Notes: a model not told the origin generated them from the sequence alone. A stretch of DNA of 24,000 nt from Promethearchaeum sp. (GCA_030612265.1 JAUWOE010000011.1:10606-34605), one strand, 5' to 3'. Counted from the first letter of the stretch, positions 5,019 to 18,476 are shown. Program-made: numbers and translations.

Positions 5019-5718
5019 TCCAATAAACGATACCCAGAACCAAAATCCATTCCCACAATGGTAAAGAAAAATTAATCAAAATTATTCTATGGTAATAATA
5101 TAGCCAGAACAAGAAAAATACAAATAAAAACCCTATTAAAGTTCCATAAAACACAATATATAAACCAACAATTTGCCAAATTTTTGGCCAAGGGTCTTTA
5201 TTAATTATTTTTTTGATAAAAATATAGAGATAACAAGAAAATACAGTTGTAAATCCTATAATAGCAATTATTGCATTTGTATAATGAGGAATGGGATTAT
5301 CCTCAGGAAAAAATCCAACTCCAATAACACAAATACATGAAATTATGCTTATAACAAGAGCAGATCTTGAAGTATGATAAGCGGTAGGTCGGAAAATTCT
5401 ATAAATATAAATGAAATAAGGAATAAAAAGTAAACCTGAAAAAATAAGAGCAATTCTGAATAATATAAATCCATTTGGATTTTCTGACTTAATTCCAAGA
5501 CTGCTTACACTTTCTCTAAGCATTAAATGAGGATCATTGTATATAATAGCCGAAATTATTATTAAAATGACTACAACAGAAAAAGTTGAGAAAAATAGGT
5601 ATCCTTGATTTTTCTTTGAACTTCTCCCTTGTAAAATCGATACAAAGAGGGAATTTTTGGTATTGGAATTCATAAAAAAACTTCTTCTCCTCTCTTTTAA
5701 ATTACTATTTATAAGCAT
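4981..5718 (-). CDS. DUF998-like polytopic membrane protein (paralog B), last gene of the minus-strand operon
   Basis: 245-aa ORF. VSSLGIKSENPNGFILFRIALIFSGLLFIPYFIY and LPLWEWILVL align with paralog A. Its ATG lies 14 nt inside the 3-prime end of the upstream amidohydrolase gene (5705-5718 overlap). Confidence 0.7.
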   Translation of the reverse strand: MLINSNLKERRRSFFMNSNTKNSLFVSILQGRSSKKNQGYLFFSTFSVVVILIIISAIIYNDPHLMLRESVSSLGIKSENPNGFILFRIALIFSGLLFIPYFIYIYRIFRPTAYHTSRSALVISIISCICVIGVGFFPEDNPIPHYTNAIIAIIGFTTVFSCYLYIFIKKIINKDPWPKIWQIVGLYIVFYGTLIGFLFVFFLFWLYYYHRIILINFSLPLWEWILVLGIVYWIIGSYLIVQNPD

Positions 5719-7282
5719 TTGTTAGCATAGTTGTTGCATCTTCTGAATTTGCTGCAGGAAAAGAATTTTTGAACATTTCATGAAACATTTGTCTTGTATC
5801 GGGATCAAAATATTTATATCCCATCTGTTTCCATTCAAAGTTCCCAGCGCTCATTAATCCCACATCATCATGTAAATTTAGTATTACTAATGGAATTATT
5901 TTTTCTGGATTAAGTTTGGATTGTGTGACAAGGCAAGATTCATTATTGTATTTACTCCAATCTTCATTAAATTGTAGTAAATGTTGCTTTATATCCATAA
6001 CACCATTATCTATTAGATTTGCTAAAGTTTGAAACATCATATGCTTAACAGATACAGGTTCTTTTGGCATTTTTGGATGATTTTGAGGAAGAATTTTTGA
6101 ATCTTGGATAATAGTTGATACGGGAGTAATATTATTTGAAAATTTAACTTCTCGTCCATATTCGGGAAATAATTTTAGCTGATTTAATCCAAGAATATTA
6201 ATTATATCCTGCAAATTTCCTCCATTTTCAAAAAAGGACGAATACATAATGTTATCAAAGAAAGCTTTTGCGTGCATTTCTTGGAAATATGTATAATCGG
6301 AACCGTACAAGCAAAATTCCGACCATCTCCTTCCTGTTTTCTTTTGAACCCCATTTTGTTCACACCACTCGCTAAATCCTTTGAAGAAACGTTCTACTGT
6401 CTTTCCTTGGCAAAGTGACATATCCATATATGTATTGGGTTGCGCTATTGTATTATAGACTTCAAAATCATCAATGTTCCCTGCAGCAGCGTGAGCAATT
6501 ATAACTTTTAAATTATTCAATAAATGTGGAAATTGTTTTTTTATAATCATACGCGTTTTTGAAACTAATTCGCCAATATCTAAAATGGTTTGCCTACCTC
6601 GAGTATCGAAAATAACAGGCCAATTATATGAAGCTGCTTTGATTAAATTATTGATAGAATTTTGAGAAGTAACTTTGTCTAACCACCCTTCAGAGCGCGG
6701 ATGTAATTTTAGTCCTCTAATATTATTTATTCCATTAGCCCAGTAATCAATTTCATCAAGCGCCTTTTTTCTTTCGTCCGGATGCACTCTTATATACCCA
6801 TTCAATCTTAAACTAACAGGAAATTTGGAAACCTGGCGCGAAATATTTGTATTACTAGCACGATATAATGCTTCTGGTTTTTTATCACGGAATATATCTT
6901 GAAACGGGAACACTACACCTTGATCAATAAGGTTTTGATATTTTATTCGCTCCCAGTAGTCTGTATAACTCCCACTTTTATTCCGTGCTTGTAATTCTTT
7001 GAAAATTCTTTTTATTATGGGCATTTGAACAAATTCTAGTGAAATTTTGGTTGGAACTCTATCAATGACAGTATCATATGTTGGAGATGTTTTTCCATCT
7101 GCCCAGTCTTTTAAAATCAAATGTTCAATTCTGCCCCAAAAATCGAAAGTCCCCTGCCCTGCTTGCATTGGATTCATCATTTCGTGGCCGTCAACGTCTT
7201 TACCCATATGACTGTGGCTGTCGATTACGATAATATTAGTTTCCCTGGTTTTTCCATTCACTACAGTTGTTATTTTCAGCAT
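5705..7282 (-). CDS. Amidohydrolase-2-type metal-dependent TIM-barrel hydrolase with a ~130-aa C-terminal extension
   Basis: 525-aa ORF. It carries the N-terminal HxH motif (IVIDSHSHMGKD), then GLKLHPRSEGW, VIFDTRG, KVIIAHAAAGN, YMDMS and LYGSDYTYF. This order is typical of amidohydrolase-2/COG2159-like enzymes. The tail after about residue 390 has no family I recognise. Confidence 0.7.
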   Translation of the reverse strand: MLKITTVVNGKTRETNIIVIDSHSHMGKDVDGHEMMNPMQAGQGTFDFWGRIEHLILKDWADGKTSPTYDTVIDRVPTKISLEFVQMPIIKRIFKELQARNKSGSYTDYWERIKYQNLIDQGVVFPFQDIFRDKKPEALYRASNTNISRQVSKFPVSLRLNGYIRVHPDERKKALDEIDYWANGINNIRGLKLHPRSEGWLDKVTSQNSINNLIKAASYNWPVIFDTRGRQTILDIGELVSKTRMIIKKQFPHLLNNLKVIIAHAAAGNIDDFEVYNTIAQPNTYMDMSLCQGKTVERFFKGFSEWCEQNGVQKKTGRRWSEFCLYGSDYTYFQEMHAKAFFDNIMYSSFFENGGNLQDIINILGLNQLKLFPEYGREVKFSNNITPVSTIIQDSKILPQNHPKMPKEPVSVKHMMFQTLANLIDNGVMDIKQHLLQFNEDWSKYNNESCLVTQSKLNPEKIIPLVILNLHDDVGLMSAGNFEWKQMGYKYFDPDTRQMFHEMFKNSFPAANSEDATTMLTNAYK

Positions 7283-7306
7283 TATTTTCGATTTCCTAGT
7301 ATTATT

Positions 7307-8968
7307 TTATAACATATAATCAGGCAGAGTTAAGGTTCCGGTCAAAGGTTGTTGTATTGGATCCTGTGAATACGTTATTGTAAAGTATTTAATATCTTCA
7401 AATATATTCGGTTCTTGCCCCTGTTTAACTTTCCAGTCATATAATGAAAGCTGATATTCTGCTTCGGTCATGGGAGGGGATGCGTAAGTAATCTCACCAA
7501 AAACTGATTGCAATAAAGGTTTGAAGAAAGGACTGTATAAATATCCGAGTTCGATAAGCTCATCCTTGAAATAACGAAACATTTGCTCAACTGCTTGAAA
7601 CATGAACCTATGCGGTTTATCTACCGGTCCTAAATAACATTCAGAAAAAAATCCCGTAGTGTCGTATTGATCAACATAACTTCTATCCAAATTTTTACCA
7701 TTGAACAATCCAATAAGTCCACGCTCAATGGCCATTTTCCTATTAAGACAAATAGTGTCAGAATTCACATCAGGAACGTATTTCCCTTCGGATAATATTT
7801 TCCGTGCTTTATAATACATCGTTTCAATTAACATGGCAATTCCAATTCTACGGCATATTGATATTTGAGCATCGCAGATTCTTAATTCAATTGTTCCATA
7901 TTTTGTAAATGGAAAAACATCTTGAAATCTTGCATCATAAAGTGAAGCATAACCAGTGGTAGCTAATAAGAACTGTTGATCTGCTTCTATTCCATTTACA
8001 CCTGATAAATATGGAAGATATTTCTTTGGATCAGTTGAATCAGAAAGCATAGTGGTGTTATTAAGTAATCTAATAGATCTTATACATTTTGGTGCTGTAT
8101 AACGGGGTTTTCCATCAACAATTTTAGATTTTATCACATCTGTGGGTTTTGAATTTAAGATTGGACTGTTTACGCTAAGTGCTATAATATGAGGAATAAA
8201 ATTTCGAACCATGGAATAACATTGGACTTTTTCCTGGTCAGAACTAAATGAACCACAATGATGATGATCTGAATGTGAAAGACCTCGAATATATTCCTTC
8301 ATTGTAGGGTTCATTGCAGTAGACATAATAGAATATCCACGAGGAAGCGTCGCTTTAGCAACATTGAATAGAGTGCCTGCCCAATACGCCAATTCTTCCG
8401 CATATTGACATGGAGGGGTTACTAATTCCAAAATAAATGTAGCCATGGTAACATTCCCATCACGACCGAACATATCAACGGGTACAATTTGATTTGCGTA
8501 TGTGTTTTCAATTTGGTAATCAATACAGCATAAAAAGCCTTTTTCTACATCAGTACGATTATACGGCATTTTACGGATCTTATTACGGATGTATTCGGGC
8601 ATATAAGGAAAGTCGTCCCGTTCGTAATTAATTAGCTGTTTAAAGATTCGGGTAGCATCATTCACCATTTCCTTCATAGTGTGGGTCATATCATCACCCT
8701 CGAGATATGTACCATCTTTGGTATGTGCTACGACTAATTCCATCTCCATACCGTGCGAAAAAGGCAGATAGCGCCAATTTGGAAGATCATTTAAGATTTC
8801 TGTCCAATCCCTTGAGTCTACGGCGGTTTTGGTAGCGGTACTTGTGAATACAGGTGAACTAGTTTGACTTTGTTGCGAATTAGATTTGGAGCCAGAAAAC
8901 ATTCCGAATGCGTTTGGTAGAGCTTCTCCGGTTTTTTTCTTCTTTCTTGCCATTTTGATGTGATCCAT
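7307..8968 (-). CDS. GCS2-family carboxylate-amine ligase (glutamate-cysteine-ligase-2/YbdK-like) with a disordered basic/Ser-Thr-rich N-terminal extension
   Basis: 553-aa ORF. The motifs occur in GCS2 order: FSHGMEMELVV, FILELVTPPC, SHSDHHHCG, IPHIIALSVNSPIL, IRSIRL, YDARF...YGTIELRICDAQ. The first ~55 aa (MARKKKKTGE...SGSKSNSQQSQTSSPVFTSTATKT) are low-complexity. An alternative start is Met6 at 8953. Confidence 0.75.
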   Translation of the reverse strand: MDHIKMARKKKKTGEALPNAFGMFSGSKSNSQQSQTSSPVFTSTATKTAVDSRDWTEILNDLPNWRYLPFSHGMEMELVVAHTKDGTYLEGDDMTHTMKEMVNDATRIFKQLINYERDDFPYMPEYIRNKIRKMPYNRTDVEKGFLCCIDYQIENTYANQIVPVDMFGRDGNVTMATFILELVTPPCQYAEELAYWAGTLFNVAKATLPRGYSIMSTAMNPTMKEYIRGLSHSDHHHCGSFSSDQEKVQCYSMVRNFIPHIIALSVNSPILNSKPTDVIKSKIVDGKPRYTAPKCIRSIRLLNNTTMLSDSTDPKKYLPYLSGVNGIEADQQFLLATTGYASLYDARFQDVFPFTKYGTIELRICDAQISICRRIGIAMLIETMYYKARKILSEGKYVPDVNSDTICLNRKMAIERGLIGLFNGKNLDRSYVDQYDTTGFFSECYLGPVDKPHRFMFQAVEQMFRYFKDELIELGYLYSPFFKPLLQSVFGEITYASPPMTEAEYQLSLYDWKVKQGQEPNIFEDIKYFTITYSQDPIQQPLTGTLTLPDYML

Positions 8969-8981
8969 TTTATTATTGATG

Positions 8982-11108
8982 TTATAATATTGCTTTAAAA
9001 AATGTTTTTAATAATCTAATATCATTTAGAAAATTATAGGTTAAAATTATATTGCAAATTCGAAAATTTGGTTCTTTCAAAACATTTTGGAGATATATAA
9101 AGGATTTTCCTTTACTGAAGAATGTATTATTGATCATTAAATTTATTTCATCGTTAAAATTTTCCTTCAACTTTGAATAGATATCTTTTACAAGGGGGTC
9201 GCCATTATCACCCAGGAAAATCGTTGGTTTTGAAAAATAAGGAATTAAATCTAGGTTAACAACAACAAACGGAGATGGATGCTGCTTAGATTGATTTTTA
9301 ATATAATTTTTCAATACATTATTGTAGTGATTTAATTCTTCTTCATTAAAATTCTCTTTTGATGGGAATAATAAAAAACCGAATGTTTTTTGAGTTTCCT
9401 GTAATAATTCAACATAAACGCGTTGAATATTCAAATATATAGGAAAATCAAACTTATATGGGCTAATAAGCATGATGTTGGATGTTGTTTTTCCCTCAAT
9501 TAAATTAGAGCTGATATTTCCTTGTAGTTCAACTAAATATTTAATTGCAGGTGTAATATTTTTTGATATTGCTGGGAAAGTATAATGTAGTGTATTAATT
9601 TCTTGAGATTCCATCTTTATTTTCTTGGTTTGAACCTTGACTTTCAGATATTCTTGTAATTGTTCAATTAAAAGGGATTTTTCATCTTTCGAGTCGAATT
9701 CTTCAATTATATCATAAACTGATTGGGGCTCTGTAAGATACGCCAAAAAAATCATGCATGTCTTTATTAGCTCAGTATTTGATTCGGAAAGGATGTTGGA
9801 GATGAGACTCTTTAATGATTCTATAGCTCGATTTTTATTGTATTTCGCCCAGTTTTTAATTAATTCAAATAAAACTTTTTGTTGAAGCTCTTTGCTGGAT
9901 AGTTGATAAACTAAATTTGATGCTATTTCAGGTTTCAAAGAAGCCGCAGTAAAAATAATATTTGTAATTATCTCATCTCTTTTTAACTCATTATCAATAT
10001 TTAATGCAATCATAGCAGCTTCATCAGGTTTATCTGAAGCGAGGCTGTTGGAAATAATTTCCATAATCGAATCTTTATGATCTCCTAAGTCCATACCCAT
10101 TACAACTTCGATGGTAACTTTAGGTTCCAGCTGCATCCCTGGTGGAATAAATTGAGAAACAATGGAATATTTTAAAGTTGGATCCGGGATCATTTGGAGG
10201 ATTTCATAAGCATATTGGGGGTTTTGATTAAAAACACCTTTAGCGATACGAGTTAACATTTCATTTTTCTGTTCCAGAGTGATTTCACTTTCTTTAGTCG
10301 AATTCGGCGAAATTTTAGGCTCTTCAATTGTTTCCACTATAGTTTCAACTTTCTCTTCCATCACTGTTTCGGAAACTGTTTTCATCACTGTTTCTTCTAC
10401 CGATTCATAAACAGTTTTAGTGATTTTACGAGGAGGTCTACTAATTTTTTTTCCCGTGATAGAATTAATTAGAGGTTCTTGCGCGATTACCTCTTCAATA
10501 ACTTTTGGTATTTTTTTTATGATTTTTTCGGAAACTTGTTTAGTTATTGTTTTTGGAACTTGTTTTATTACTTTCTTAGTAATTTCACGTGTGTGGGTCT
10601 TATGTATTGGAATTTTGGTTATTTTGTCTAATTCTTTTTTTGCTTTCGATTTTGATAATGCAGGAATATCAGTGAGTATTATGGATTTTGGTAATTTCTT
10701 TTTAAAAGCGGTCAGATCTTCAAATTTGATGTCGCTTTTTACCAGAATATCTGTAACAATGGATTTTTCCACCTTTTTTCTTATTTTCCATTCCATAGAT
10801 TTAAATTCGATTTTTTTCTGGTAATAGGTTAAAACATTTAATTCTGTTAAACCTCCTTCGATTCGGGGTTTAATCAATACAGGCAATATTTTAGTTTCTC
10901 CTGGATCAAAAGATTGTCCTTTTGAAATTGATTTATCTACAGAAAGATCACTCGTTGTACTTGTAAATTTAAAAGCATATGATTCTTCAGATTCTGAATT
11001 ATTCTTAACTGAAAATGAAAGTTCATAATCTTGACTTCCTAAAAGTAAAGTTTGTGGATAATTTAATAATTCTATTGAAATAGAATCCGAGTGAGATTTT
11101 TTTGCCAT
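8982..11108 (-). CDS. 708-aa multidomain protein of unknown function: N-terminal beta-sandwich-like domain, Lys/Glu-rich repeat tract, alpha-solenoid-like middle, alpha/beta C-terminal domain
   Basis: Long ORF ending 13 nt upstream of the ligase gene. The N-terminus has alternating beta-strand patterns (YELSFSVKNNSESEESYAFKFTS...GETKILPVLIKP), like Ig/CARDB-type sandwiches. Residues ~153-265 are charged repeats. Residues ~280-500 are a run of amphipathic helices. No TM segment and no signal peptide are evident. Confidence 0.75.
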   Translation of the reverse strand: MAKKSHSDSISIELLNYPQTLLLGSQDYELSFSVKNNSESEESYAFKFTSTTSDLSVDKSISKGQSFDPGETKILPVLIKPRIEGGLTELNVLTYYQKKIEFKSMEWKIRKKVEKSIVTDILVKSDIKFEDLTAFKKKLPKSIILTDIPALSKSKAKKELDKITKIPIHKTHTREITKKVIKQVPKTITKQVSEKIIKKIPKVIEEVIAQEPLINSITGKKISRPPRKITKTVYESVEETVMKTVSETVMEEKVETIVETIEEPKISPNSTKESEITLEQKNEMLTRIAKGVFNQNPQYAYEILQMIPDPTLKYSIVSQFIPPGMQLEPKVTIEVVMGMDLGDHKDSIMEIISNSLASDKPDEAAMIALNIDNELKRDEIITNIIFTAASLKPEIASNLVYQLSSKELQQKVLFELIKNWAKYNKNRAIESLKSLISNILSESNTELIKTCMIFLAYLTEPQSVYDIIEEFDSKDEKSLLIEQLQEYLKVKVQTKKIKMESQEINTLHYTFPAISKNITPAIKYLVELQGNISSNLIEGKTTSNIMLISPYKFDFPIYLNIQRVYVELLQETQKTFGFLLFPSKENFNEEELNHYNNVLKNYIKNQSKQHPSPFVVVNLDLIPYFSKPTIFLGDNGDPLVKDIYSKLKENFNDEINLMINNTFFSKGKSFIYLQNVLKEPNFRICNIILTYNFLNDIRLLKTFFKAIL
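10314..10652 (-). repeat. Coding low-complexity repeat tract: a Lys-rich part followed by a Glu/Thr/Val-rich part
   Basis: The protein reads ...ITKKVIKQVPKTITKQVSEKIIKKIPKVIEEVI...KITKTVYESVEETVMKTVSETVMEEKVETIVETIEE. At DNA level CATCACTGTTTC occurs at 10359-10370 and again at 10383-10394, a 24-nt (8-aa) period. Confidence 0.7.
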
Positions 11109-11187: not shown

Positions 11188-11673
11188 TTATTCGAATTGA
11201 CGTTTTACTTCTACTAATCCTTTTGTACTCTTTATTGATATTTCTTCTTCTTGGTTTTTGATCACATTGAGAAAATTTTCTATTCCATTTCCGATTGAAA
11301 TAAACTCAGCTTGAAAATCTTTAAAGGGAACTCCAACCAAACAATCGATTTCAATGTATAAATTATTCTTAAATAGTGAAAATGTGCACTCTGGTAAATC
11401 GTAATTTAAACCCAAAGAGATTTCATAAATTGTTAAAATTGTTTGTGAAGGGAAAAGTGCGGTATTAAGCAGTAATGCTTTGACGTGTACCCATTTTCCA
11501 AGATTATAAAGAATTACATCAAAATCAAGCTCTCTACACCTATATACGCAGATAATAGCCGGAAATATTTCTTTATCTTTATCCCCGATATCTTGAAACT
11601 CATAGGGAATGTTCATTTGATCCAAATATTCGGCAATGTTTCCTAAATTTTTTCTTTCGTTTATATAACCCAT
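11188..11673 (-). CDS. YbjN/type-III-secretion-chaperone-like small protein (tentative)
   Basis: 161-aa ORF. The pattern NIAEYLDQMNIPYEF...FPAIICVYRCRELDFDVILYNLGKWVHVKALLLN...TILTIYEISLGLNYDLPECTFSLFKNNLYIEIDCLV..PFKDFQAEF resembles YbjN-family proteins (a helix, paired beta-strands, L..lN.......F.l....l.l..d). Called from motif recall only. Confidence 0.5.
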   Translation of the reverse strand: MGYINERKNLGNIAEYLDQMNIPYEFQDIGDKDKEIFPAIICVYRCRELDFDVILYNLGKWVHVKALLLNTALFPSQTILTIYEISLGLNYDLPECTFSLFKNNLYIEIDCLVGVPFKDFQAEFISIGNGIENFLNVIKNQEEEISIKSTKGLVEVKRQFE

Positions 11674-11760
11674 TTTTTCTTCCCTCTACATAAAAATATT
11701 TACTTTGTTCTTATATTAAATTTTCAATTATGTTTTAAAAAACCCAAATTTATACAATGT

Positions 11761-11784
11761 TTTATTTGGATATTTTTATTTGGA
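11761..11784 (+). promoter_or_regulatory. Tandem direct repeat TTTATTTGGA x2 (14-nt period) upstream of the longin-like gene
   Basis: TTTATTTGGA occurs at 11761-11770 and 11775-11784, 20-43 nt upstream of the ATG at 11804 and downstream of a TATA-like AAATTTATAC (11746-11755). Possible operator or initiator region. The AT-rich background makes chance occurrence plausible. Confidence 0.2.
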
Positions 11785-11803
11785 ATTATTAGGATGGGAT
11801 TAG

Positions 11804-12460
11804 ATGGTAAAAGATATTTTTAAGCTCATGATAATTCATAGGGCAGCATCAGTCTGTATTTTTGAACAAACTTTTAATGAACTTCCTGGAGAAGTTGATG
11901 AAGTGGTATTATCAGGATATCTAGTTGCCATTTTTGCCCTTTCTGAAGAAATTGCTAAACAATCAATACATTATATGCAGTTAAACACATTACGTATTTC
12001 ATTCAAAAAAAATGTATCTGATAATTATATCATGGTGCTTATTACAAAAAATGAAATTAAATATAGTAGAATCCTTCAAATTCTAGAAAACTTATCCGAA
12101 AAGTTTAATGAAAAATATCTAGTCCATTTTGAACGAGAGTTTACTGGTAATATTACCCATTTTAAGAATTTTGCCCTTGAAGTCGAAGGTCTTATCCATA
12201 TGGAAACGAGGTATTTCCAATATTTGCAACAACGAAGTGAAAAAATAAATGAATATTTCGAGTCAATTGAATATAATTGGAAAGATTTACGAGATAAATT
12301 GGAAAAAAGGGCACGGATATTTGGAAAATGGAGTATTAAACACGATATGAAAATCGATAAATCGCTTGAAAATACCCTACTAGAATCGCGTGATCATGGT
12401 AGAAAATTGGAGCATGAGGAAAAGAAAAAAGAAAAAGAAGAAGGAAAAGGTTGGGTTTAG
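11804..12460 (+). CDS. Longin-like domain protein with a helical middle and a highly charged C-terminal tail
   Basis: 218-aa ORF. Residues 1-105 follow the longin order beta-beta-alpha-beta-beta-beta-alpha: [74 protein letters not shown]. The C-terminus is [16 protein letters not shown]. Confidence 0.6.
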
Positions 12461-12462
12461 GC

Positions 12463-14679
12463 CTATTTTTTATCTGTATCGCGTCTTATTTTCAAACTTA
12501 AATCCCGAGCTCTTTTAGAATACCATACTAGTAATTCTCCTGAATCTTCAGGTTTAAAATATTCGCCTGCACATAAAGCTGCTGCTTTTTTCATTTCGTC
12601 ATCATTTGGATTACCTAACCCGATGATGTACAAAACCACATTTTGATTTGTGGATAATTTCTTAATAGATTCCATAAAAGCATTACCATCTGTTGGAGCA
12701 CCATCAGTGAGTAACACAATCATAGTAGGTTGTTCTGGATTATCTGCAGTGAACATGTCAACGAGTTGTTGGGCTTTTTCCATTGCTTGACCCATATTCG
12801 TGCTCTGTCCATAAGCATTAGCTATTTGATCAACGATAGTTCGCGCACACGCTTCTAATTCTCCTTTTTGACCGGAAGAAGAATCCATCCATAATTTACC
12901 ACCTGGCATGGGTAGAATTTGAGCTTCATCTGCAAAACGGATAATTGAGACTTTCTCACCAAATCCCCGACCTACTTTTTCAGATAAAAATAAGACAGCT
13001 GCAAAAGCTGCTGACATTCTGCGTGGCACGTTAACACCCGGTTTAAATTTAGCCAGAAATTCTTGAATTTCCCTATCTTGCATTGCTGCTTTAATTCCTT
13101 CAAGTGCTGGACCGATATTTGTAACTTCAACATCCCTCGCCATCATGGATCGCGAAATATCAATAATAAGTATAGCATTGAATGTTACAAGACCTGTTGG
13201 TTTCAGTTCAATAGTTGTTGTGGGAGTTATGGACGCTAAAACATCCCCAGTTAGATCGGGAACCGTATTGAGGACTTCTATCGCGGTATTTGCTCTTTTC
13301 CAGCGAAGTTTAATACCTTTAAATATAATATAATTTGCTAACCATTGTTTAATGATATCCATATTGTTTCGGGCTTGGCTTATTATTTCCCATATATTTT
13401 CACCGGTAATAGGTGAGACACCCAGTTCAAGAGATTGTAAAGGAATAATTTGCCGTATATTCTTTTTCAATTCAACTTCATCTGAACCAATACCGCTTGC
13501 TTCAATTAATTCTTGATCAACTATTACTTTATTATCGGGAACATCCGGATTGAATCGCACTTTTCCTGCACCAAATGCACCTGTAAGATCATCTTCAAAT
13601 GCTAAAATATCTCGTTCTTTTACCTCAAGAGACATTGCATTTCGATGGTTGATTTCAATAAATCCACCCATTTCTGGTTTACTCTCAATTTCCAAAGTTA
13701 CTGCTTCAACATGATCAATTGGAGGTTCCATTGAATAAATTAAAATCTGAGGTGCTTCTACTGCAGTATCAAAAGCGGTATTTTCATCCATTATGATCTG
13801 TTGTTCAGTAACTTGCCCAATTTTTAAACGAGCCGAACCTGTAGCTCGTGTAAATGGATCTTCCCAACCAACTAGAGCGTTTGGAAAAAGATTTAAGCGT
13901 GAGACTAAATTTTGAGATAAAATAACTTTTCCCTCAAGAGAACTTGGTGAAATTTTAGGACTTACTATCATCGAACCTGGATTATTACTAAGCAAAGAAT
14001 TAATGTCAATTTTATTTGGATAAGGATCAGGAGGCGCTATTGGTTCAGCTGAGGGCATGCCTTCTTCAAATCCGGGTTGTGTTAATTGTGAATCACTTGC
14101 AGGAGTTAAATTAGTAGGAGGTGCCATGCTTGGTTGTGAGGGCAACGACGTTATTGGAGTTATTTTGATCTGTGGTATAGAACTCGGAGCTGGAGGTATG
14201 GGTTTTGGTAGAGGAGGAATTGATGGTTGAGGTGTAGGGGAGATGACTGGAACAGGAGGTGTTGGTGGAGGAGAAACTGATGGTTGAGGAGTAGGTGGAA
14301 GTACTGGAGGAGGAGGCATTGCCTTGGTGGGTTTTGGTGGAGGAGAAACCGAGAATTTAGGAGTTTCTATGGTTGCAGGAGCTGGTGGTGTAGGAGCTAG
14401 CGATGGTTCCTTTGAAGAAACAGAAATCGATGGTTTTGTTATGATAATCTCTAGTCCTTGATATCCAAAACTATCCACAATATCCTTCGCAATTTTGATA
14501 GAAAAATCAAGTGATTCTTTATTTGGTTCCATATAACAATTATAGGAACTTTTCGTTTGTGGATCTATTAAAACTATATCACCGCCTTCTTCTAAGCCTA
14601 ACTTTTTTGCATTTTTTATACTTAATAGACATTTACGGCTTAAATCAGAAGTAATTTCAACAAATAATTTTAATTCCAT
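12463..14679 (-). CDS. von Willebrand factor A (vWA) domain protein with three AbrB/Cdc48-N-like small beta-barrel modules and a long polyproline linker
   Basis: 738-aa ORF. The C-terminal vWA domain has a complete MIDAS set: D507-I-S-R-S511 (LIIDISRSM), T in GQSTNMG, and D in IVLLTDGAPTDG. Three modules (aa 1-82, ~245-320, ~325-410) share the pattern L.L..GD.V.h.D..T......h......I.hD, as in Cdc48-N/AbrB-like barrels. Residues 83-221 are Pro-rich. Confidence 0.85.
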   Translation of the reverse strand: MELKLFVEITSDLSRKCLLSIKNAKKLGLEEGGDIVLIDPQTKSSYNCYMEPNKESLDFSIKIAKDIVDSFGYQGLEIIITKPSISVSSKEPSLAPTPPAPATIETPKFSVSPPPKPTKAMPPPPVLPPTPQPSVSPPPTPPVPVISPTPQPSIPPLPKPIPPAPSSIPQIKITPITSLPSQPSMAPPTNLTPASDSQLTQPGFEEGMPSAEPIAPPDPYPNKIDINSLLSNNPGSMIVSPKISPSSLEGKVILSQNLVSRLNLFPNALVGWEDPFTRATGSARLKIGQVTEQQIIMDENTAFDTAVEAPQILIYSMEPPIDHVEAVTLEIESKPEMGGFIEINHRNAMSLEVKERDILAFEDDLTGAFGAGKVRFNPDVPDNKVIVDQELIEASGIGSDEVELKKNIRQIIPLQSLELGVSPITGENIWEIISQARNNMDIIKQWLANYIIFKGIKLRWKRANTAIEVLNTVPDLTGDVLASITPTTTIELKPTGLVTFNAILIIDISRSMMARDVEVTNIGPALEGIKAAMQDREIQEFLAKFKPGVNVPRRMSAAFAAVLFLSEKVGRGFGEKVSIIRFADEAQILPMPGGKLWMDSSSGQKGELEACARTIVDQIANAYGQSTNMGQAMEKAQQLVDMFTADNPEQPTMIVLLTDGAPTDGNAFMESIKKLSTNQNVVLYIIGLGNPNDDEMKKAAALCAGEYFKPEDSGELLVWYSKRARDLSLKIRRDTDKK
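14017..14433 (-). repeat. Coding polyproline/PxxP-rich tract with internal imperfect repeats; locally G+C-rich
   Basis: The protein reads PSLAPTPPAPATIETPKFSVSPPPKPTKAMPPPPVLPPTPQPSVSPPPTPPVPVISPTPQPSIPPLPKPIPPAPSSIPQ...APPDPYP. The unit PTPQPS(V/I) with flanking PP recurs 20 aa apart (nt 14263-14295 and 14203-14235), and VSPPP occurs twice. Confidence 0.85.
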
Positions 14680-14753
14680 TGATAAAACATCTCTTTTTTA
14701 TGATTATTATTAAATTTATTATTATATTGAACAATTAATTGGGAAATTTTTCG

Positions 14754-15140
14754 CTAAGGATATAATTCTGCAATTTTTCCAGCGTAGTATCGAAATACCG
14801 TAACAGTTTTGCCAAGATCTTGAATAGTTCGACTTGCACCTATTAAAAAAAACCTACCAGCAGAAGATAGTACCATAAAGCTTTTTCTACCGCGTAAGAC
14901 AACTTCAATTAATTTATTGTATCCTATTTTGGTTACAGACTCCTCACCGCTTTGTAATAGAACTGCGCCCATTGCACAAAGTGAATCTGGATTGATTTGA
15001 TTTGCGCTAGGAATCGCTGAATAAGCTAATCTCATTCCTTCTCGGGAAACTAGAGCCAGAGCGTCAAGTTCAGTATTTGATGTTATGTTCGCAAGATAGG
15101 CACTAAGCTCATTAGCGTCGCTTTCGTTTAGTGATGACAT
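14754..15140 (-). CDS. Roadblock/LC7/MglB-family protein
   Basis: 128-aa ORF. LDALALVSREGMRLAYS...PDSLCAMGAVLLQSGEESV...LIEVVLRGRKSFMVLSSAGRFFLIGASRTIQDLGKT matches the Roadblock/LC7 alpha-beta-beta-alpha-beta-beta-beta signature. It lies 74 nt upstream of, and co-oriented with, the vWA gene. Confidence 0.85.
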   Translation of the reverse strand: MSSLNESDANELSAYLANITSNTELDALALVSREGMRLAYSAIPSANQINPDSLCAMGAVLLQSGEESVTKIGYNKLIEVVLRGRKSFMVLSSAGRFFLIGASRTIQDLGKTVTVFRYYAGKIAELYP

Positions 15141-15168
15141 AATTGTTCAATTCTTATTTCTGTTTTAG

Positions 15169-15178
15169 AATAAAAAAA
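15169..15178 (-). promoter_or_regulatory. TATA-like box for the Roadblock gene, probably a leaderless or very short leader transcript
   Basis: The minus strand reads TTTTTTTATT about 29-38 nt upstream of the ATG at 15140. No Shine-Dalgarno-like purine run lies between it and the ATG. Confidence 0.3.
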
Positions 15179-15622
15179 GGTTGTGTTTTTTTTTTTTTTA
15201 ACACGCTTTAGAAATACCAGCCTCGTTTCTTAATTTAAATCATTTCTTCAATTAAAATTTGTCGTATCTCGATTTTTTGCAGTTTGGCGAATTTTCATTG
15301 ATTCGATAGAAATTCCTTATAAAATTTTCATCGAATCTCTCATTGCTAATAATTTTAATTTTATTATTCCTAAAAATTATTTCATGATTTTAAGCCTGTT
15401 TTTGAGGGGGACGAAAATTTTCATATATTCATTTCTTCTTGAATTTCTTCACCAAAACCACAAAAACCCCCACAATTGAAAGAAACGGGACTCCGGAATA
15501 AAGAGTAATAAGTAGATTGCTTTCAAGGTTATATTTATCCAATGGGATGGTTAGAAGCTTGGGCCTTAAATTTCTATGTAACACCATGATTTTCCTTCCT
15601 TTTTTATCTTTTTTCTCCCTAT

Positions 15623-16144
15623 TTGCGCGATTGTGTTAATCTTCGCTCTCTCCCTAAAGAACTTGCTTTTTTTCCATTGAAACACATTAAACTTTATAAT
15701 AGCGGTCATCTCATCAAAAATAAAACCAATCTTCCAAAATTGCTTGTAAATTTTGTTCTAATCGATTGGTACTACGGAGATTTCGATTTTAGGAATAGAC
15801 GTAATCGAAAAAAAAATCTTGATTTTGATCTTATTATTGATCGCCTAACACCCGTTTATGAATATCTCCAATTTAATGTTCTTACTAAATTAATTAGCAA
15901 TTTTAGACAAAAAAAAATCCAAATTATACATATTGTAGAACAATGGGCTGAAAAATCAGATAGAGGGACAAAAAAAAAAATTCAAGATTTTATCATCGAA
16001 ATTGCCCGAAAATTAATCTACCTCAAGGATATAAACTTTTCTTATAGTTTGATAACGGAGTTATTTCTGATATCTTCAAATCTTTACCTAAATCTAATCC
16101 CGCTTAAGGAATTCCACCGCAATAACTGTTTTACCTTCAACTAG
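15623..16144 (+). pseudogene. ATG-less 173-codon ORF: probable 5-prime-truncated gene remnant (LRR-like N-terminus) or an orphan CDS
   Basis: The frame is open from 15590 to 16144 but contains no ATG codon, only a TTG at 15623. A stop-free frame this long is unlikely by chance in DNA this AT-rich. The N-terminus LRSLPKELAFFPLKHIKLYNSGHL resembles a leucine-rich-repeat unit. It contains A9, A9 and A11 runs (15808-15816, 15909-15917, 15970-15980). Its 3-prime end overlaps the gelsolin-like gene. Confidence 0.3.
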
Positions 16145-16840
16145 GATTCGTGGGGTATACCCTTCTGCGAAAAATATGCCTTCTGGTAAAGAACTGATCG
16201 GTTCTAAAATGTGTTCTATTTGCTTTTTTCCGAGGAAAACTTGCACTTTTTCACTAACAGAATAGGCAATATTCCCCATTATAACCATTTCTCGATGGAA
16301 TCCTTCAGGAATACCAGCTTCATCGAGAGATTCTATAATTTTATCCAAATCTTGACGAGAAACTATTACCTGTGCCCCATTTGAAGGAATTTTTTGCGAT
16401 CCTGTATATAGGGGTCCAGATTGTTGGATTCCTTCATTATATTTGCTGCTTGACCCAACCATCGGAGCATAACTTCTAGGTTTTGAAGGACCTCCGCCAA
16501 TTTCAAATTTTAATTCCATATCTTCTTTGATTTCTCTGGCAAATCCATCAGTCCTGGGTTGTTCAATTGCACTAAGAAAATCAGGGTAATCGTCTACCTC
16601 ATCTGCATCTATTGAAACGGATTTGTAATTTAATCCAACTTGACCTCTGATCTCTTGAAGTTTATTAGCCCCAATAAATTTGGAACGCACAGTACACTCA
16701 GAACCTTTCCACAAATAAACCACACGGGTGATATCATCACATAAAATGTAGGACTCATTCTTTTCTAATAGAGTTTTAAGGGGAGCATCGGATTTAATTT
16801 CGTGAACTTCTCCGTTGCCTTTAACTAAGAATATTTGCAT
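16094..16840 (-). CDS. Gelsolin/cofilin-fold domain protein: one gelsolin-like domain, a linker, and an unassigned C-terminal domain
   Basis: 248-aa ORF. Residues 1-95 match the gelsolin-repeat core pattern (h-h-h-D.......hh.W.G......EK..A...A..h): LEKNESYILCDDITRVVYLWKGSECTVRSKFIGANKLQEIRGQVGLNYKSVSIDADEVDDYPDFL. Residues ~150-248 are beta-rich and unassigned. The architecture recalls the single-gelsolin-domain-plus-domain-X ('1DGelX') type reported for Asgard archaea. Confidence 0.65.
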   Translation of the reverse strand: MQIFLVKGNGEVHEIKSDAPLKTLLEKNESYILCDDITRVVYLWKGSECTVRSKFIGANKLQEIRGQVGLNYKSVSIDADEVDDYPDFLSAIEQPRTDGFAREIKEDMELKFEIGGGPSKPRSYAPMVGSSSKYNEGIQQSGPLYTGSQKIPSNGAQVIVSRQDLDKIIESLDEAGIPEGFHREMVIMGNIAYSVSEKVQVFLGKKQIEHILEPISSLPEGIFFAEGYTPRILVEGKTVIAVEFLKRD

Positions 16841-16916: not shown

Positions 16917-18476
16917 CTAAAAATTTTTTGATAAGAGAAGTGATTTTAAATTTTTAATTAGATCAGTTGCGAGTATCCTTGGTCCGCTTGATTTTTTAGC
17001 GGATTCACCTAGTAACCCATTTAAATATGCTGCAGAACAAGCACTATTAAATGGTGTGTTTCCGATGGAAAGAAAAGCCGATACTAGTCCAGATAAAACA
17101 TCACCTGTCCCACCAACCGACATTTCAGGGCATCCGCTACGATTTACCCTATAAATACTTTCCTTTTTGGAAATTTTTATAATGTAATCATAGACTCCCT
17201 TTACTAAAAACACCCCTCCAATTTTCTTCAAGATTGAAATCAGTTCTTCACCGTGTTTTTCAATATCATCGAATTTTGGGAGATTTTCAAATTGGACTAA
17301 TGATTTAAGTTCTGCAATGTGTGGTGTTAATACTACTGGGGAATTTTGTAATTTAATTTTGCTCTCTTTGATTAGTTTACCCAACATTTTAATACCATCT
17401 GCATCAACAACACAAGGGATTTTTTGATCAATAATCCATAAGATAAATTTTTCAAAAAATTCAACGGTTTTAGGATCTTGACCCAGTCCGGGACCGATTA
17501 GCACCGTATCAGACCATTGGCTCAATTTTTTTGCTTTGTTAAAATCTAAGTTAGTAAAATTTTTTGCAACACCTTCTTGCACAATTAAATTTGGAGAAAA
17601 ACTTCTTACTACATTTCCAATTCCCTTAGGTACAAAACAAATACATAAATCAATACCTAATTCAAGTGCGGACATTGCCGCAAGTGATGGCGCGCCTGAA
17701 TATGAAGAAGATCCTCCAATCACCAGTAATTTTCCATATTGACCTTTATGGACATCTTTTTTGCGTTTTTTAATTGCAACCTTAATATCTCCATCTCCAA
17801 CAAAAAGACTAGCTTCTATTGGAATTCCAATTGGAGCCACCCAGGTGTTAATATTGGCGAATCCTTGTTTTTTAGCATGGAAAGTTATACATAAATCACA
17901 GTTCACAACTTTATCGGTGATTTTTCCTGTATCTGGATCCATTCCTGAAGGTACATCTACGGAGATTTTTGGTATTTTGCTTTGGTTTATTATATCTATT
18001 GCCGTAGAAATCGGATCTCTTATCTTTCCTTTAATACCTGTTCCCAATAACGCATCAATAATGATATCTGCATTCTTAAACCATTTAGATTTGGAAAGAG
18101 TTTTAAGTTGATTGATATTTTTAGTATAAAAAGCGCGAATTTTTAAAGAAAGAGTATTAACTAATTCCCAATTTAACCTTGTTTCTTCGGTACGTATATG
18201 AATCGGATCCCCTAAGAGTAAAACATTAACAAAAACTCCTCGAGTGGCCAGATGTCTTGCAATACATAGTCCATCCCCACCGTTATTTCCTGTTCCGCAT
18301 AAAATAATTACAGATGATTCTGAATTAAGATTGTATTGTTCATAAATTTTGTTTGTCGCTTGTAAACCTGCACACTCCATCAAATAACCATTTGGTATGC
18401 CTAAACTCGCGCTGTTTGCATCCAATAGAGAGACATCTTTTGCAGTGATTGTATCATTATTAAAATTAAAACTCAT
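16917..18476 (-). CDS. nnr: Bifunctional NAD(P)H-hydrate repair enzyme (NAD(P)HX epimerase / ADP-dependent dehydratase; YjeF_N plus carbohydrate-kinase domains)
   Basis: 519-aa ORF. The N-terminal half carries CGTGNNGGDG. The C-terminal half carries KGQYGKLLVIGGS...GAP.LAA, LTPH..E and GGTGDVLSG, which are typical of YjeF/Nnr. Confidence 0.9.
   Translation of the reverse strand: MSFNFNNDTITAKDVSLLDANSASLGIPNGYLMECAGLQATNKIYEQYNLNSESSVIILCGTGNNGGDGLCIARHLATRGVFVNVLLLGDPIHIRTEETRLNWELVNTLSLKIRAFYTKNINQLKTLSKSKWFKNADIIIDALLGTGIKGKIRDPISTAIDIINQSKIPKISVDVPSGMDPDTGKITDKVVNCDLCITFHAKKQGFANINTWVAPIGIPIEASLFVGDGDIKVAIKKRKKDVHKGQYGKLLVIGGSSSYSGAPSLAAMSALELGIDLCICFVPKGIGNVVRSFSPNLIVQEGVAKNFTNLDFNKAKKLSQWSDTVLIGPGLGQDPKTVEFFEKFILWIIDQKIPCVVDADGIKMLGKLIKESKIKLQNSPVVLTPHIAELKSLVQFENLPKFDDIEKHGEELISILKKIGGVFLVKGVYDYIIKISKKESIYRVNRSGCPEMSVGGTGDVLSGLVSAFLSIGNTPFNSACSAAYLNGLLGESAKKSSGPRILATDLIKNLKSLLLSKNF

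Follow-up and report, generated by a model that had tools for sequence, protein, structure and literature searches.

The window analysed here, a stretch of 24,000 nucleotides from Promethearchaeum sp. (GCA_030612265.1 JAUWOE010000011.1:10606-34605), carries on its minus strand a gelsolin-like gene, a Roadblock/LC7 gene and a vWA gene, and these three genes form an array that is conserved across the sampled Asgard lineages. The first-pass annotation, made from the sequence of the window, had described five linked genes within 5.7 kb, with a YbjN-like and a longin-like gene added to this trio, and had read them as one functional module. All five open reading frames (ORFs) are present exactly where it had placed them. 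The conserved unit, however, is the three-gene array and not the five-gene cluster: the trio recurs in essentially every locus, whereas the complete five-gene set occurs only in the Loki lineage. We propose, with a probability of roughly 0.4, that the three proteins are soluble partners in a complex associated with actin or an actin-related protein (ARP). What is new is the fixed combination of known parts (gelsolin, Roadblock and vWA), a combination that was not found in the open-access literature searched. Judged by identity of the vWA protein, the nearest relatives of the AT-rich window (G+C of 27–37%) are Promethearchaeum syntrophicum MK-D1 (82%) and Lokiarchaeum ossiferum (60%).

Gene order was compared in two samples. 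The genome sample comprises 80 loci from species-representative genomes, which were chosen via an alignment of vWA homologues and compared with the window proteins by tblastn; the metagenome sample is an independent set of 80 contigs chosen via the gelsolin-like gene. Each neighbour count takes as its denominator only the loci with enough flanking sequence. In the genome sample of 80 Asgard loci, one gene order (YjeF, gelsolin-like, Roadblock, vWA, all on a single strand) is almost universal wherever the flanks are long enough. The YjeF gene lies upstream of the gelsolin-like gene in 47/47 loci, the gelsolin-like gene upstream of the Roadblock gene in 58/58, and the Roadblock gene upstream of the vWA gene in 68/69, 67 of them with both genes on the same strand. 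In the metagenome loci, the Roadblock gene is found downstream of the gelsolin-like gene in 42 of 45 cases, plus one in which it is inverted, the vWA gene downstream of the gelsolin-like gene in 28/29, and the YjeF gene upstream of it in 41/46. The linkage of the trio therefore holds whichever gene, vWA or gelsolin-like, was used to choose the loci.

Exceptions within the trio are rare. The Roadblock gene is inverted in loci L028 and L128, and it is missing from the short flanks of L064, L120 and L137. In several lineages the array is broken after the vWA gene, where different replacement genes are found (the Loki group, L009, L031/L033, L008, L017 and L022). Save for the rare exceptions, the trio is intact even where the identity of the YjeF protein drops to 36–44%. 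Outside the block, synteny decays, and the best-conserved gene upstream of YjeF is found in 23 loci only. The YjeF gene itself (16917-18476, minus strand) encodes a YjeF-type NAD(P)HX epimerase/dehydratase with matches to Pfam YjeF_N and Carb_kinase, and it is probably a constant upstream neighbour of the trio rather than a part of its function.

The gelsolin-like gene (16094-16840, minus strand) encodes a protein of 248 aa, designated GelX, and its ORF includes the peptide quoted in the first-pass annotation. An AlphaFold2 (AF2) model was computed with 36 homologues. Residues 1–100 (16541-16840) form a gelsolin domain with a predicted local distance difference test (pLDDT) score above 90, residues ~101–159 (16364-16540) a linker that is disordered in the model over residues 107–157, and residues 160–248 (16097-16363) a C-terminal domain modelled as one helix and five strands, with a pLDDT of ~80. 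The Pfam Gelsolin model did not match the window protein. In a phmmer search of the PDB, the single sequence matched the Loki 2DGel structure 7whg at 3.4e-5, and a profile of 27 sequences matched 7whg at 8.2e-11, Thor 2DGel3 (7c2h) at 1.4e-7 and ProGel (7c2f) at 2.6e-7, followed by eukaryotic gelsolin, villin and adseverin at ~1e-2. The orthologue from SMTZ1, a Thor metagenome, matches horse gelsolin at 1.4e-7, and the UniRef name of the MK-D1 homologue begins with 'Gelsolin-like domain-c...'. For the N-terminal domain, all of the 44 best Foldseek matches were gelsolin-family domains (gelsolin, villin, adseverin), the top one being Thor ProGel 7c2f_B with an E-value of 1.4e-5, a TM-score (TMt) of 0.78 and a root-mean-square deviation of 1.5 Å. 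The gelsolin fold claimed from the sequence is thus confirmed for the N-terminal ~100 residues only, and the protein adds a member to the Asgard gelsolin family.

The remainder of the protein is of a different nature. The C-terminal domain has no Pfam match and no meaningful sequence match in the PDB; hhalign ruled it out both as a second gelsolin domain and as a Roadblock-like domain. The linker is variable, apart from two invariant stretches, G99-x-A101-x-E103-I104 (16529-16546) and G142-P143-x-Y145-x-G147 (16400-16417). In a segment that is otherwise predicted to be disordered, GxAxEI and GPxYxG look like candidate short linear motifs for the binding of a partner.

The gelsolin-like protein shares with the Asgard mini-gelsolins ProGel, 1DGelX and 2DGel (PDB 7c2f, 7c2g, 7c2h, 7whf and 7whg) the fold of the N-terminal domain and the signature ..VYLWKG..S..R.KFIGA... 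For Thor ProGel, 1DGelX and 2DGel, activity towards rabbit actin has been reported in vitro (Akil et al. 2020, PMC7444086). By its published description, which is the basis of the comparison, 1DGelX (PMC7444086) seems similarly built, with a single gelsolin domain and, C-terminal to it, a part unrelated to gelsolin. The two differ, however, in that domain X of 1DGelX is reported as a predicted coiled coil, whereas the C-terminal part of the gelsolin-like protein is predicted to consist of a helix and five strands. Furthermore, 1DGelX migrated close to actin on gels, and the gelsolin-like protein, with its 248 aa, would seem to be the smaller of the two. A linkage of gelsolin genes to Roadblock or vWA genes is not mentioned in that work (Akil et al. 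2020, PMC7444086).

The Roadblock/LC7 gene (14754-15140, minus strand) encodes 128 aa. Its assignment in the first-pass annotation proved correct: Pfam Robl_LC7 scores 27.0 bits (E 3.6e-6) against a curated cut-off of 23 bits, and a profile of the family finds the Roadblock chains 9jue_D (6.7e-5) and 7f8m_A (2.2e-4) in the PDB. The protein is ~54% identical to its non-Loki Asgard orthologues, with a mean column identity of 72% in the alignment. In Pfam score and in its size of ~128 aa it resembles the Roadblock/LC7-MglB family (dynein light chain, LAMTOR, MglB and the Asgard proteins 7f8m and 9jue). It differs from that family in its surroundings, where no GTPase gene recurs and the fixed neighbours are the gelsolin-like and vWA genes.

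The genes of the trio all lie on the same strand, with median intergenic gaps of ~200–270 bp. The gap between the gelsolin-like and Roadblock genes is an AT-rich, apparently non-coding spacer of 953 bp in the window (15141-16093), compared with ~88 bp in P. syntrophicum MK-D1; some 870 bp of it are absent from MK-D1 and from L002, and conservation is limited to the ~50 bp adjoining the Roadblock start. No tRNA, Rfam family or convincing ORF was found in this gap. A doubtful TTG-start ORF of 173 aa that overlaps it (15623-16144, plus strand) has no Pfam match. The extra AT-rich DNA may be the remnant of an insertion or a lineage-specific small gene. Between the Roadblock and vWA genes the gap is 74 bp and AT-rich in the window, as opposed to a median of ~266 bp in other genomes. 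The first-pass annotation had regarded these two genes as probably co-transcribed; they may be, but this short spacer could equally hold a promoter of the vWA gene's own. A scan for sigma-70 promoters and terminators, using a model that is not applicable to archaea, gave sites no commoner than in shuffled sequence.

The vWA gene (12463-14679, minus strand) encodes the largest protein of the trio, with 738 aa. It comprises an N-terminal barrel (residues 1–85, 14425-14679), a Pro-rich spacer (residues 83–222, 14014-14433), two further barrels (residues 225–325 and 326–410, 13450-14007), a conserved middle region (residues 411–500) and the vWA domain itself (about residues 500–738, 12466-13182). 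Pfam VWA matches with 42.8 bits (8.5e-11) against a cut-off of 23.8 bits, and VWA_2 was matched too. The metal-ion-dependent adhesion site (MIDAS), formed by D507-x-S509-x-S511 (13147-13161) together with T627 and D659, is invariant in 16 sequences, and the alignment spans metagenome-assembled genomes (MAGs) labelled Loki-, Hod-, Thor-, Hermod- and Odinarchaeota. The vWA assignment with an intact MIDAS, made earlier from the sequence, is therefore borne out. The best PDB match of the domain is 5a8j 'VWA2' (1.1e-5), which we take to be Sulfolobus ArnB. The three barrels are homologous to one another (hhalign probability 81–94%), and in vWA homologues they match the double-psi-barrel models Molydop_binding (8e-9) and CDC48_N. 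Neither these repeated barrels nor the YjeF gene upstream had been mentioned in the first-pass annotation. Compared pair by pair over their C-terminal 520 aa, the vWA proteins show a median identity of 78%; for the neighbouring YjeF enzyme the figure is 62%. An exact-sequence lookup of the vWA protein returned no record. In hydropathy, the best 19-residue value across the five proteins is ≤1.44, which indicates no transmembrane-like segment; all three proteins of the trio are soluble, single-copy and strongly constrained.

The spacer of the vWA protein had been described as a polyproline tract of ~140 aa. Its length and Pro-richness were confirmed, with 139 aa and 35% Pro in the window, but it is not true polyproline. 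Taking runs of about six or more consecutive Pro as the mark of FH1-type polyproline, we found that the longest run is 4 in the window. In 15 vWA homologues the linker measures 111–227 aa with 26–38% Pro, and its longest runs are 2–4, so that composition is kept and sequence is not. Its look-alikes in the PDB are Pro-rich regions of TonB, chitinase and AaBgIC. FH1 regions typically have longer Pro runs, and the short runs found here make a profilin-recruiting role of the spacer doubtful. The vWA orthologue of L081, a further contig of the Loki lineage (8518-10902, minus strand), is only 28% identical to that of the window, whereas its Roadblock and gelsolin-like neighbours are 79% and 55% identical; its MIDAS is kept, and the aligned N-terminal fragments are acidic and apparently not Pro-rich. 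Taken with the short Pro runs, the apparent loss of Pro-rich character in L081 weakens the idea of a profilin/polyproline connection. Asgard-type vWA genes, 58% identical to that of the window, were also seen on the short contigs L064 and L073 of a MAG labelled Thermodesulfobacteriota, a placement that is probably due to misbinning.

In most lineages the array does not end at the vWA gene. Among genome loci with at least 3 kb of flank past this gene, an actin-family gene lies downstream in 50/59 (~85%), and the same is true of 15 of 21 metagenome loci. On the same strand as the vWA gene follow the genes for an AbrB/MazE+ACT protein (133 aa), a coiled-coil protein (~242 aa) and the actin-family protein (~396 aa), the last being the third gene downstream of vWA in most lineages. 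The array then continues, still on the same strand, with an 862-aa protein whose C-terminus is weakly CHAT-like, then a PLD-like protein and a methylase/helicase. It is exemplified by L006 (5756-14768) and occurs in ~50 other loci, such as L013, L027 and L047, and in most non-Loki Asgard genomes. The actin-family protein matches Pfam Actin at 3.5e-47 and its best PDB hit at 3.7e-37; it is about equally similar to actin and to Arp1, and on this comparison we take it to be an ARP-like paralogue and not Lokiactin. In seven loci (L020, 2313-4766, and six others) a GH3 glycosidase gene stands between the vWA and AbrB-ACT genes.

How could the three proteins function? Several observations point towards a cytoskeleton-associated complex, namely that the gelsolin domain is of the kind that binds actin, that an actin-family gene recurs as a neighbour, that the Roadblock fold is one of platforms, and that the MIDAS-containing vWA protein has ligand-binding barrels set on a long, stiff spacer. 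The actin connection is plausible because the N-terminal domain belongs to the Asgard gelsolin family that has been crystallised on actin, and because an actin-family gene lies downstream in most lineages. Jointly, the three proteins would make up a cytosolic complex that is bound to a filament system of the actin family. Its gelsolin domain would contact either actin (Lokiactin) or the divergent ARP encoded three genes downstream in most lineages. The Roadblock fold typically forms dimeric platforms, and the Roadblock protein would presumably dimerise into an assembly or regulatory platform. The metal site of the vWA domain would hold on to an acidic residue in a partner protein; one candidate for such a MIDAS ligand is the invariant Glu of the gelsolin-like linker. 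A further ligand would be bound by the N-terminal barrel, which the stiff Pro-rich spacer keeps at a distance. In the lineage of the window, the array was broken after the vWA gene, and the YbjN-like/longin-like pair stands there instead.

A number of points weigh against this proposal. The block that holds the trio also holds YjeF, PLD-like and methylase/helicase genes, so conserved order alone is no proof of shared function. The gaps between the genes are long (medians of ~200–270 bp), and the trio is therefore not a tight operon; compared with MK-D1, the window has ~870 bp extra between the gelsolin-like and Roadblock genes. Homologues of the AbrB-ACT, coiled-coil and ARP genes are missing from the window and, within 10 kb, from the Loki-group loci. 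The lineage of the window thus keeps the trio with no ARP within 10 kb, and the ARP need not be a neighbour. Small GTPases are the usual partners of Roadblock proteins, and the first-pass annotation had placed the genes in a context of GTPase-controlled trafficking. That context was not supported: a search for P-loop/DxxG/NKxD motifs in every ORF of the window and of the 80 loci found no small GTPase recurrent near the trio, with just two isolated cases more than 7 kb away. Moreover, cradle-loop barrels combined with a vWA domain would fit a Cdc48/proteasome-adaptor-like or ArnB-like signalling role as well. While domain identities, conservation and gene linkage are directly shown, physical association of the trio, binding to actin or the ARP and the roles of the single parts are what we infer from the sequences.

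The proposal can be set beside several known systems. The vWA protein has the same complete DxSxS...T...D site as MIDAS-vWA adaptors such as ArnB ('VWA2', 5a8j), Rpn10, the MIDAS domain of midasin and integrin I-domains. It differs from them by the three cradle-loop barrels and the long Pro-rich spacer that precede its vWA domain, and partner genes of the FHA, AAA or ubiquitin-related kind are absent from its vicinity. With formin FH1 regions and Ena/VASP it has in common a long Pro-rich, low-complexity segment that is encoded beside a protein of the actin-binding type; in contrast to these, its longest Pro run is 2–4 in 16 homologues, and there is no FH2- or EVH-type domain. In MK-D1, GTPase genes and Roadblock genes do not as a rule share operons (Tran et al. 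2024, PMC10933270). Other conserved operons of eukaryotic signature proteins, combining ESCRT with ubiquitin or a LAMTOR1-like protein with a Rab-like GTPase and DENN, have been described in a preprint by Liu et al. (10.1101/2020.10.19.343400), in which the trio array is not described. The open-access literature that we searched contains no description of the array or of the MK-D1 locus tags DSAG12_01764 to DSAG12_01768.

The two further genes of the former five-gene cluster lie beyond the vWA gene. The 161-aa YbjN/T3SS-chaperone-like protein (11188-11673, minus strand) is encoded divergently from the 218-aa longin-like candidate (11804-12460, plus strand), with a spacer of 130 bp, and the latter gene is convergent with the vWA gene. 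The 161-aa protein of the window has no Pfam, NCBIfam or PDB match. An exhaustive HMMER search assembled its family in 47 representative clusters; 5 of 33 members match Pfam YbjN (PF10722; best 0.0026) and 4 of 33 match CesT_Tir_1 (0.0025), all below the curated cut-offs, and the family profile found no match in the PDB. On these weak sequence matches the YbjN assignment is no more than plausible. The 218-aa protein has 18 homologues only, all from close Promethearchaeum/Lokiarchaeum-like relatives. The window protein has no Pfam match; one of 13 homologues shows a weak match to Fuz_longin_1 (0.0092), and the UniRef name of the MK-D1 homologue begins with 'FUZ/MON1/HPS1 first Lo...'. Its AF2 model, built from 13 close homologues, is unreliable (pLDDT 44.7) and gives the order strand-strand-helix-strand-strand-helix followed by long helices; a Foldseek search with this low-confidence model returned nothing at E ≤ 0.001. 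Both this order and the UniRef name are compatible with longin, and the protein possibly consists of a longin-type domain followed by long helices.

In a profile search, the YbjN-like and longin-like genes are absent within 10 kb of the trio in 76 of the 80 genome loci. By tblastn and profile hidden Markov models, their presence among the genome loci is limited to L001, L002 and L004, all of them Promethearchaeum or Lokiarchaeum. L081 has the same five-gene layout, with a 218-aa protein that is 39% identical, so that the layout is known from five loci of the Promethearchaeum/Lokiarchaeum lineage (the window, L001, L002, L004 and L081). In L003, a genome of the Loki group, the trio occurs without the two genes adjoining. 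The possibility that the YbjN-like and longin-like proteins, or the 708-aa protein encoded next to them, are hidden homologues of the genes that follow vWA in other Asgards was rejected by hhalign (probabilities ≤1.3%). The pair are lineage-specific neighbours, and nothing links them functionally to the trio.

Several other explanations of the conserved linkage were weighed. The trio might be a conserved neighbourhood without shared function, its genes kept adjacent by inheritance or shared local regulation while serving separate processes. Such an origin would agree with the presence of YjeF, PLD-like and methylase/helicase genes in the same block, with gaps of 200–270 bp that leave room for separate promoters, and with the 953-bp spacer inside the trio of the window. 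Yet synteny falls off fast outside the block, as seen from the mere 23 loci that have the best-conserved gene upstream of YjeF, and the array has broken past the vWA gene in several lineages, whereas interruptions of the trio are rare, even at a YjeF identity of 36–44%; we consider this explanation somewhat unlikely. An adaptor for protein handling or signalling with no link to actin would give the barrels and the vWA domain the task of binding substrates or phospho-partners, in the manner of Ufd1/Rpn10 or ArnA/ArnB, with the gelsolin domain as a protein-binding module. The matches of vWA homologues to CDC48_N and Molydop_binding speak for it, as do 5a8j as the best vWA match, if indeed it is ArnB, and the CHAT-like (caspase-fold) 862-aa gene of the extended array. 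What makes it quite unlikely in our judgement is that the conserved clusters of neighbour genes include no recurrent gene for an AAA ATPase, a ubiquitin-like protein, an FHA protein or a kinase, that the gelsolin domain groups in Foldseek with actin-binding gelsolins and not with other members of the fold, and that the gene which does recur is of the actin family.

The remaining alternatives enlarge or recast the trio. That all five genes, the YbjN-like and longin-like ones included, form a single trafficking or GTPase-regulatory module agrees with the retention of the five-gene layout in five Loki-lineage loci, in which the 218-aa protein has diverged down to 39% identity, and with the possible longin-type domain of that protein. 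We nevertheless hold it to be very unlikely, given that the two extra genes are absent from 76/80 loci and do not lie beside the trio in L003, that they belong to another transcription unit, that no GTPase is found in the neighbourhood, and that the longin assignment is unproven. A further idea derives from the COPII coat. Sec23 and Sec24 combine a vWA-like trunk with a gelsolin-like domain, and in these archaea, which are relatives of eukaryotes, genes for the two types of domain adjoin each other; the trio might then be a split ancestral coat, with the two domains on separate polypeptides and the Roadblock protein replacing the GTPase-regulatory partner. Sec23/24 trunks, however, are not known to have a MIDAS motif, whereas the vWA protein has an intact one that does not vary. 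Moreover, neither a zinc-finger domain nor a nearby Sar1-like GTPase was found. Identity with Sec23/24 was rejected at the level of both sequence and fold, as no such family appeared in Pfam at E ≤ 1, no such chain in the PDB profile search and none in the top 50 Foldseek matches. This origin is accordingly highly improbable.

On the flank that carries the YjeF-type gene, the window also contains a GH2 glycosidase gene and an MFS transporter gene; on the other flank of the five-gene region lie genes for the 708-aa protein, a GCS2-like protein and an amidohydrolase-like protein. No tRNA or Rfam family was found in the window. The 708-aa protein (8982-11108, minus strand) has a repetitive middle rich in Lys, Glu and Thr and only faint Pfam matches (TRAPPC8 Ig-like domain, 0.055); its gene adjoins the YbjN-like gene in L001, L002 and L004, not in L081. 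Homologues of the amidohydrolase-like and GCS2-like genes (5705-8968, minus strand) are also present in L024 (1-2377), ~6 kb from the array and on the opposite side, upstream of YjeF. This arrangement is a hint of a shared neighbourhood of older date, rearranged since.

To our knowledge, only isolated Asgard profilins and gelsolins have been tested so far, mostly with rabbit actin. The trio provides a concrete candidate complex that is testable in the cultured organisms Promethearchaeum syntrophicum (genes around DSAG12_01764 to DSAG12_01767) and Lokiarchaeum ossiferum. A more far-reaching version of the proposed actin-associated complex, which we regard as unlikely, would make the trio an ancient Asgard-specific complex that regulates an actin-family filament system, be it Lokiactin or the neighbouring ARP, and is coupled via the MIDAS and the Pro-rich arm; if true, it would be a prokaryotic multi-subunit actin/ARP regulator predating the eukaryotic machines of this kind. 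Should the trio work jointly on actin, multi-subunit actin regulation would have existed before eukaryotes. If its function is not related to actin, the strong conservation of the vWA protein would still mark an important function in these archaea.

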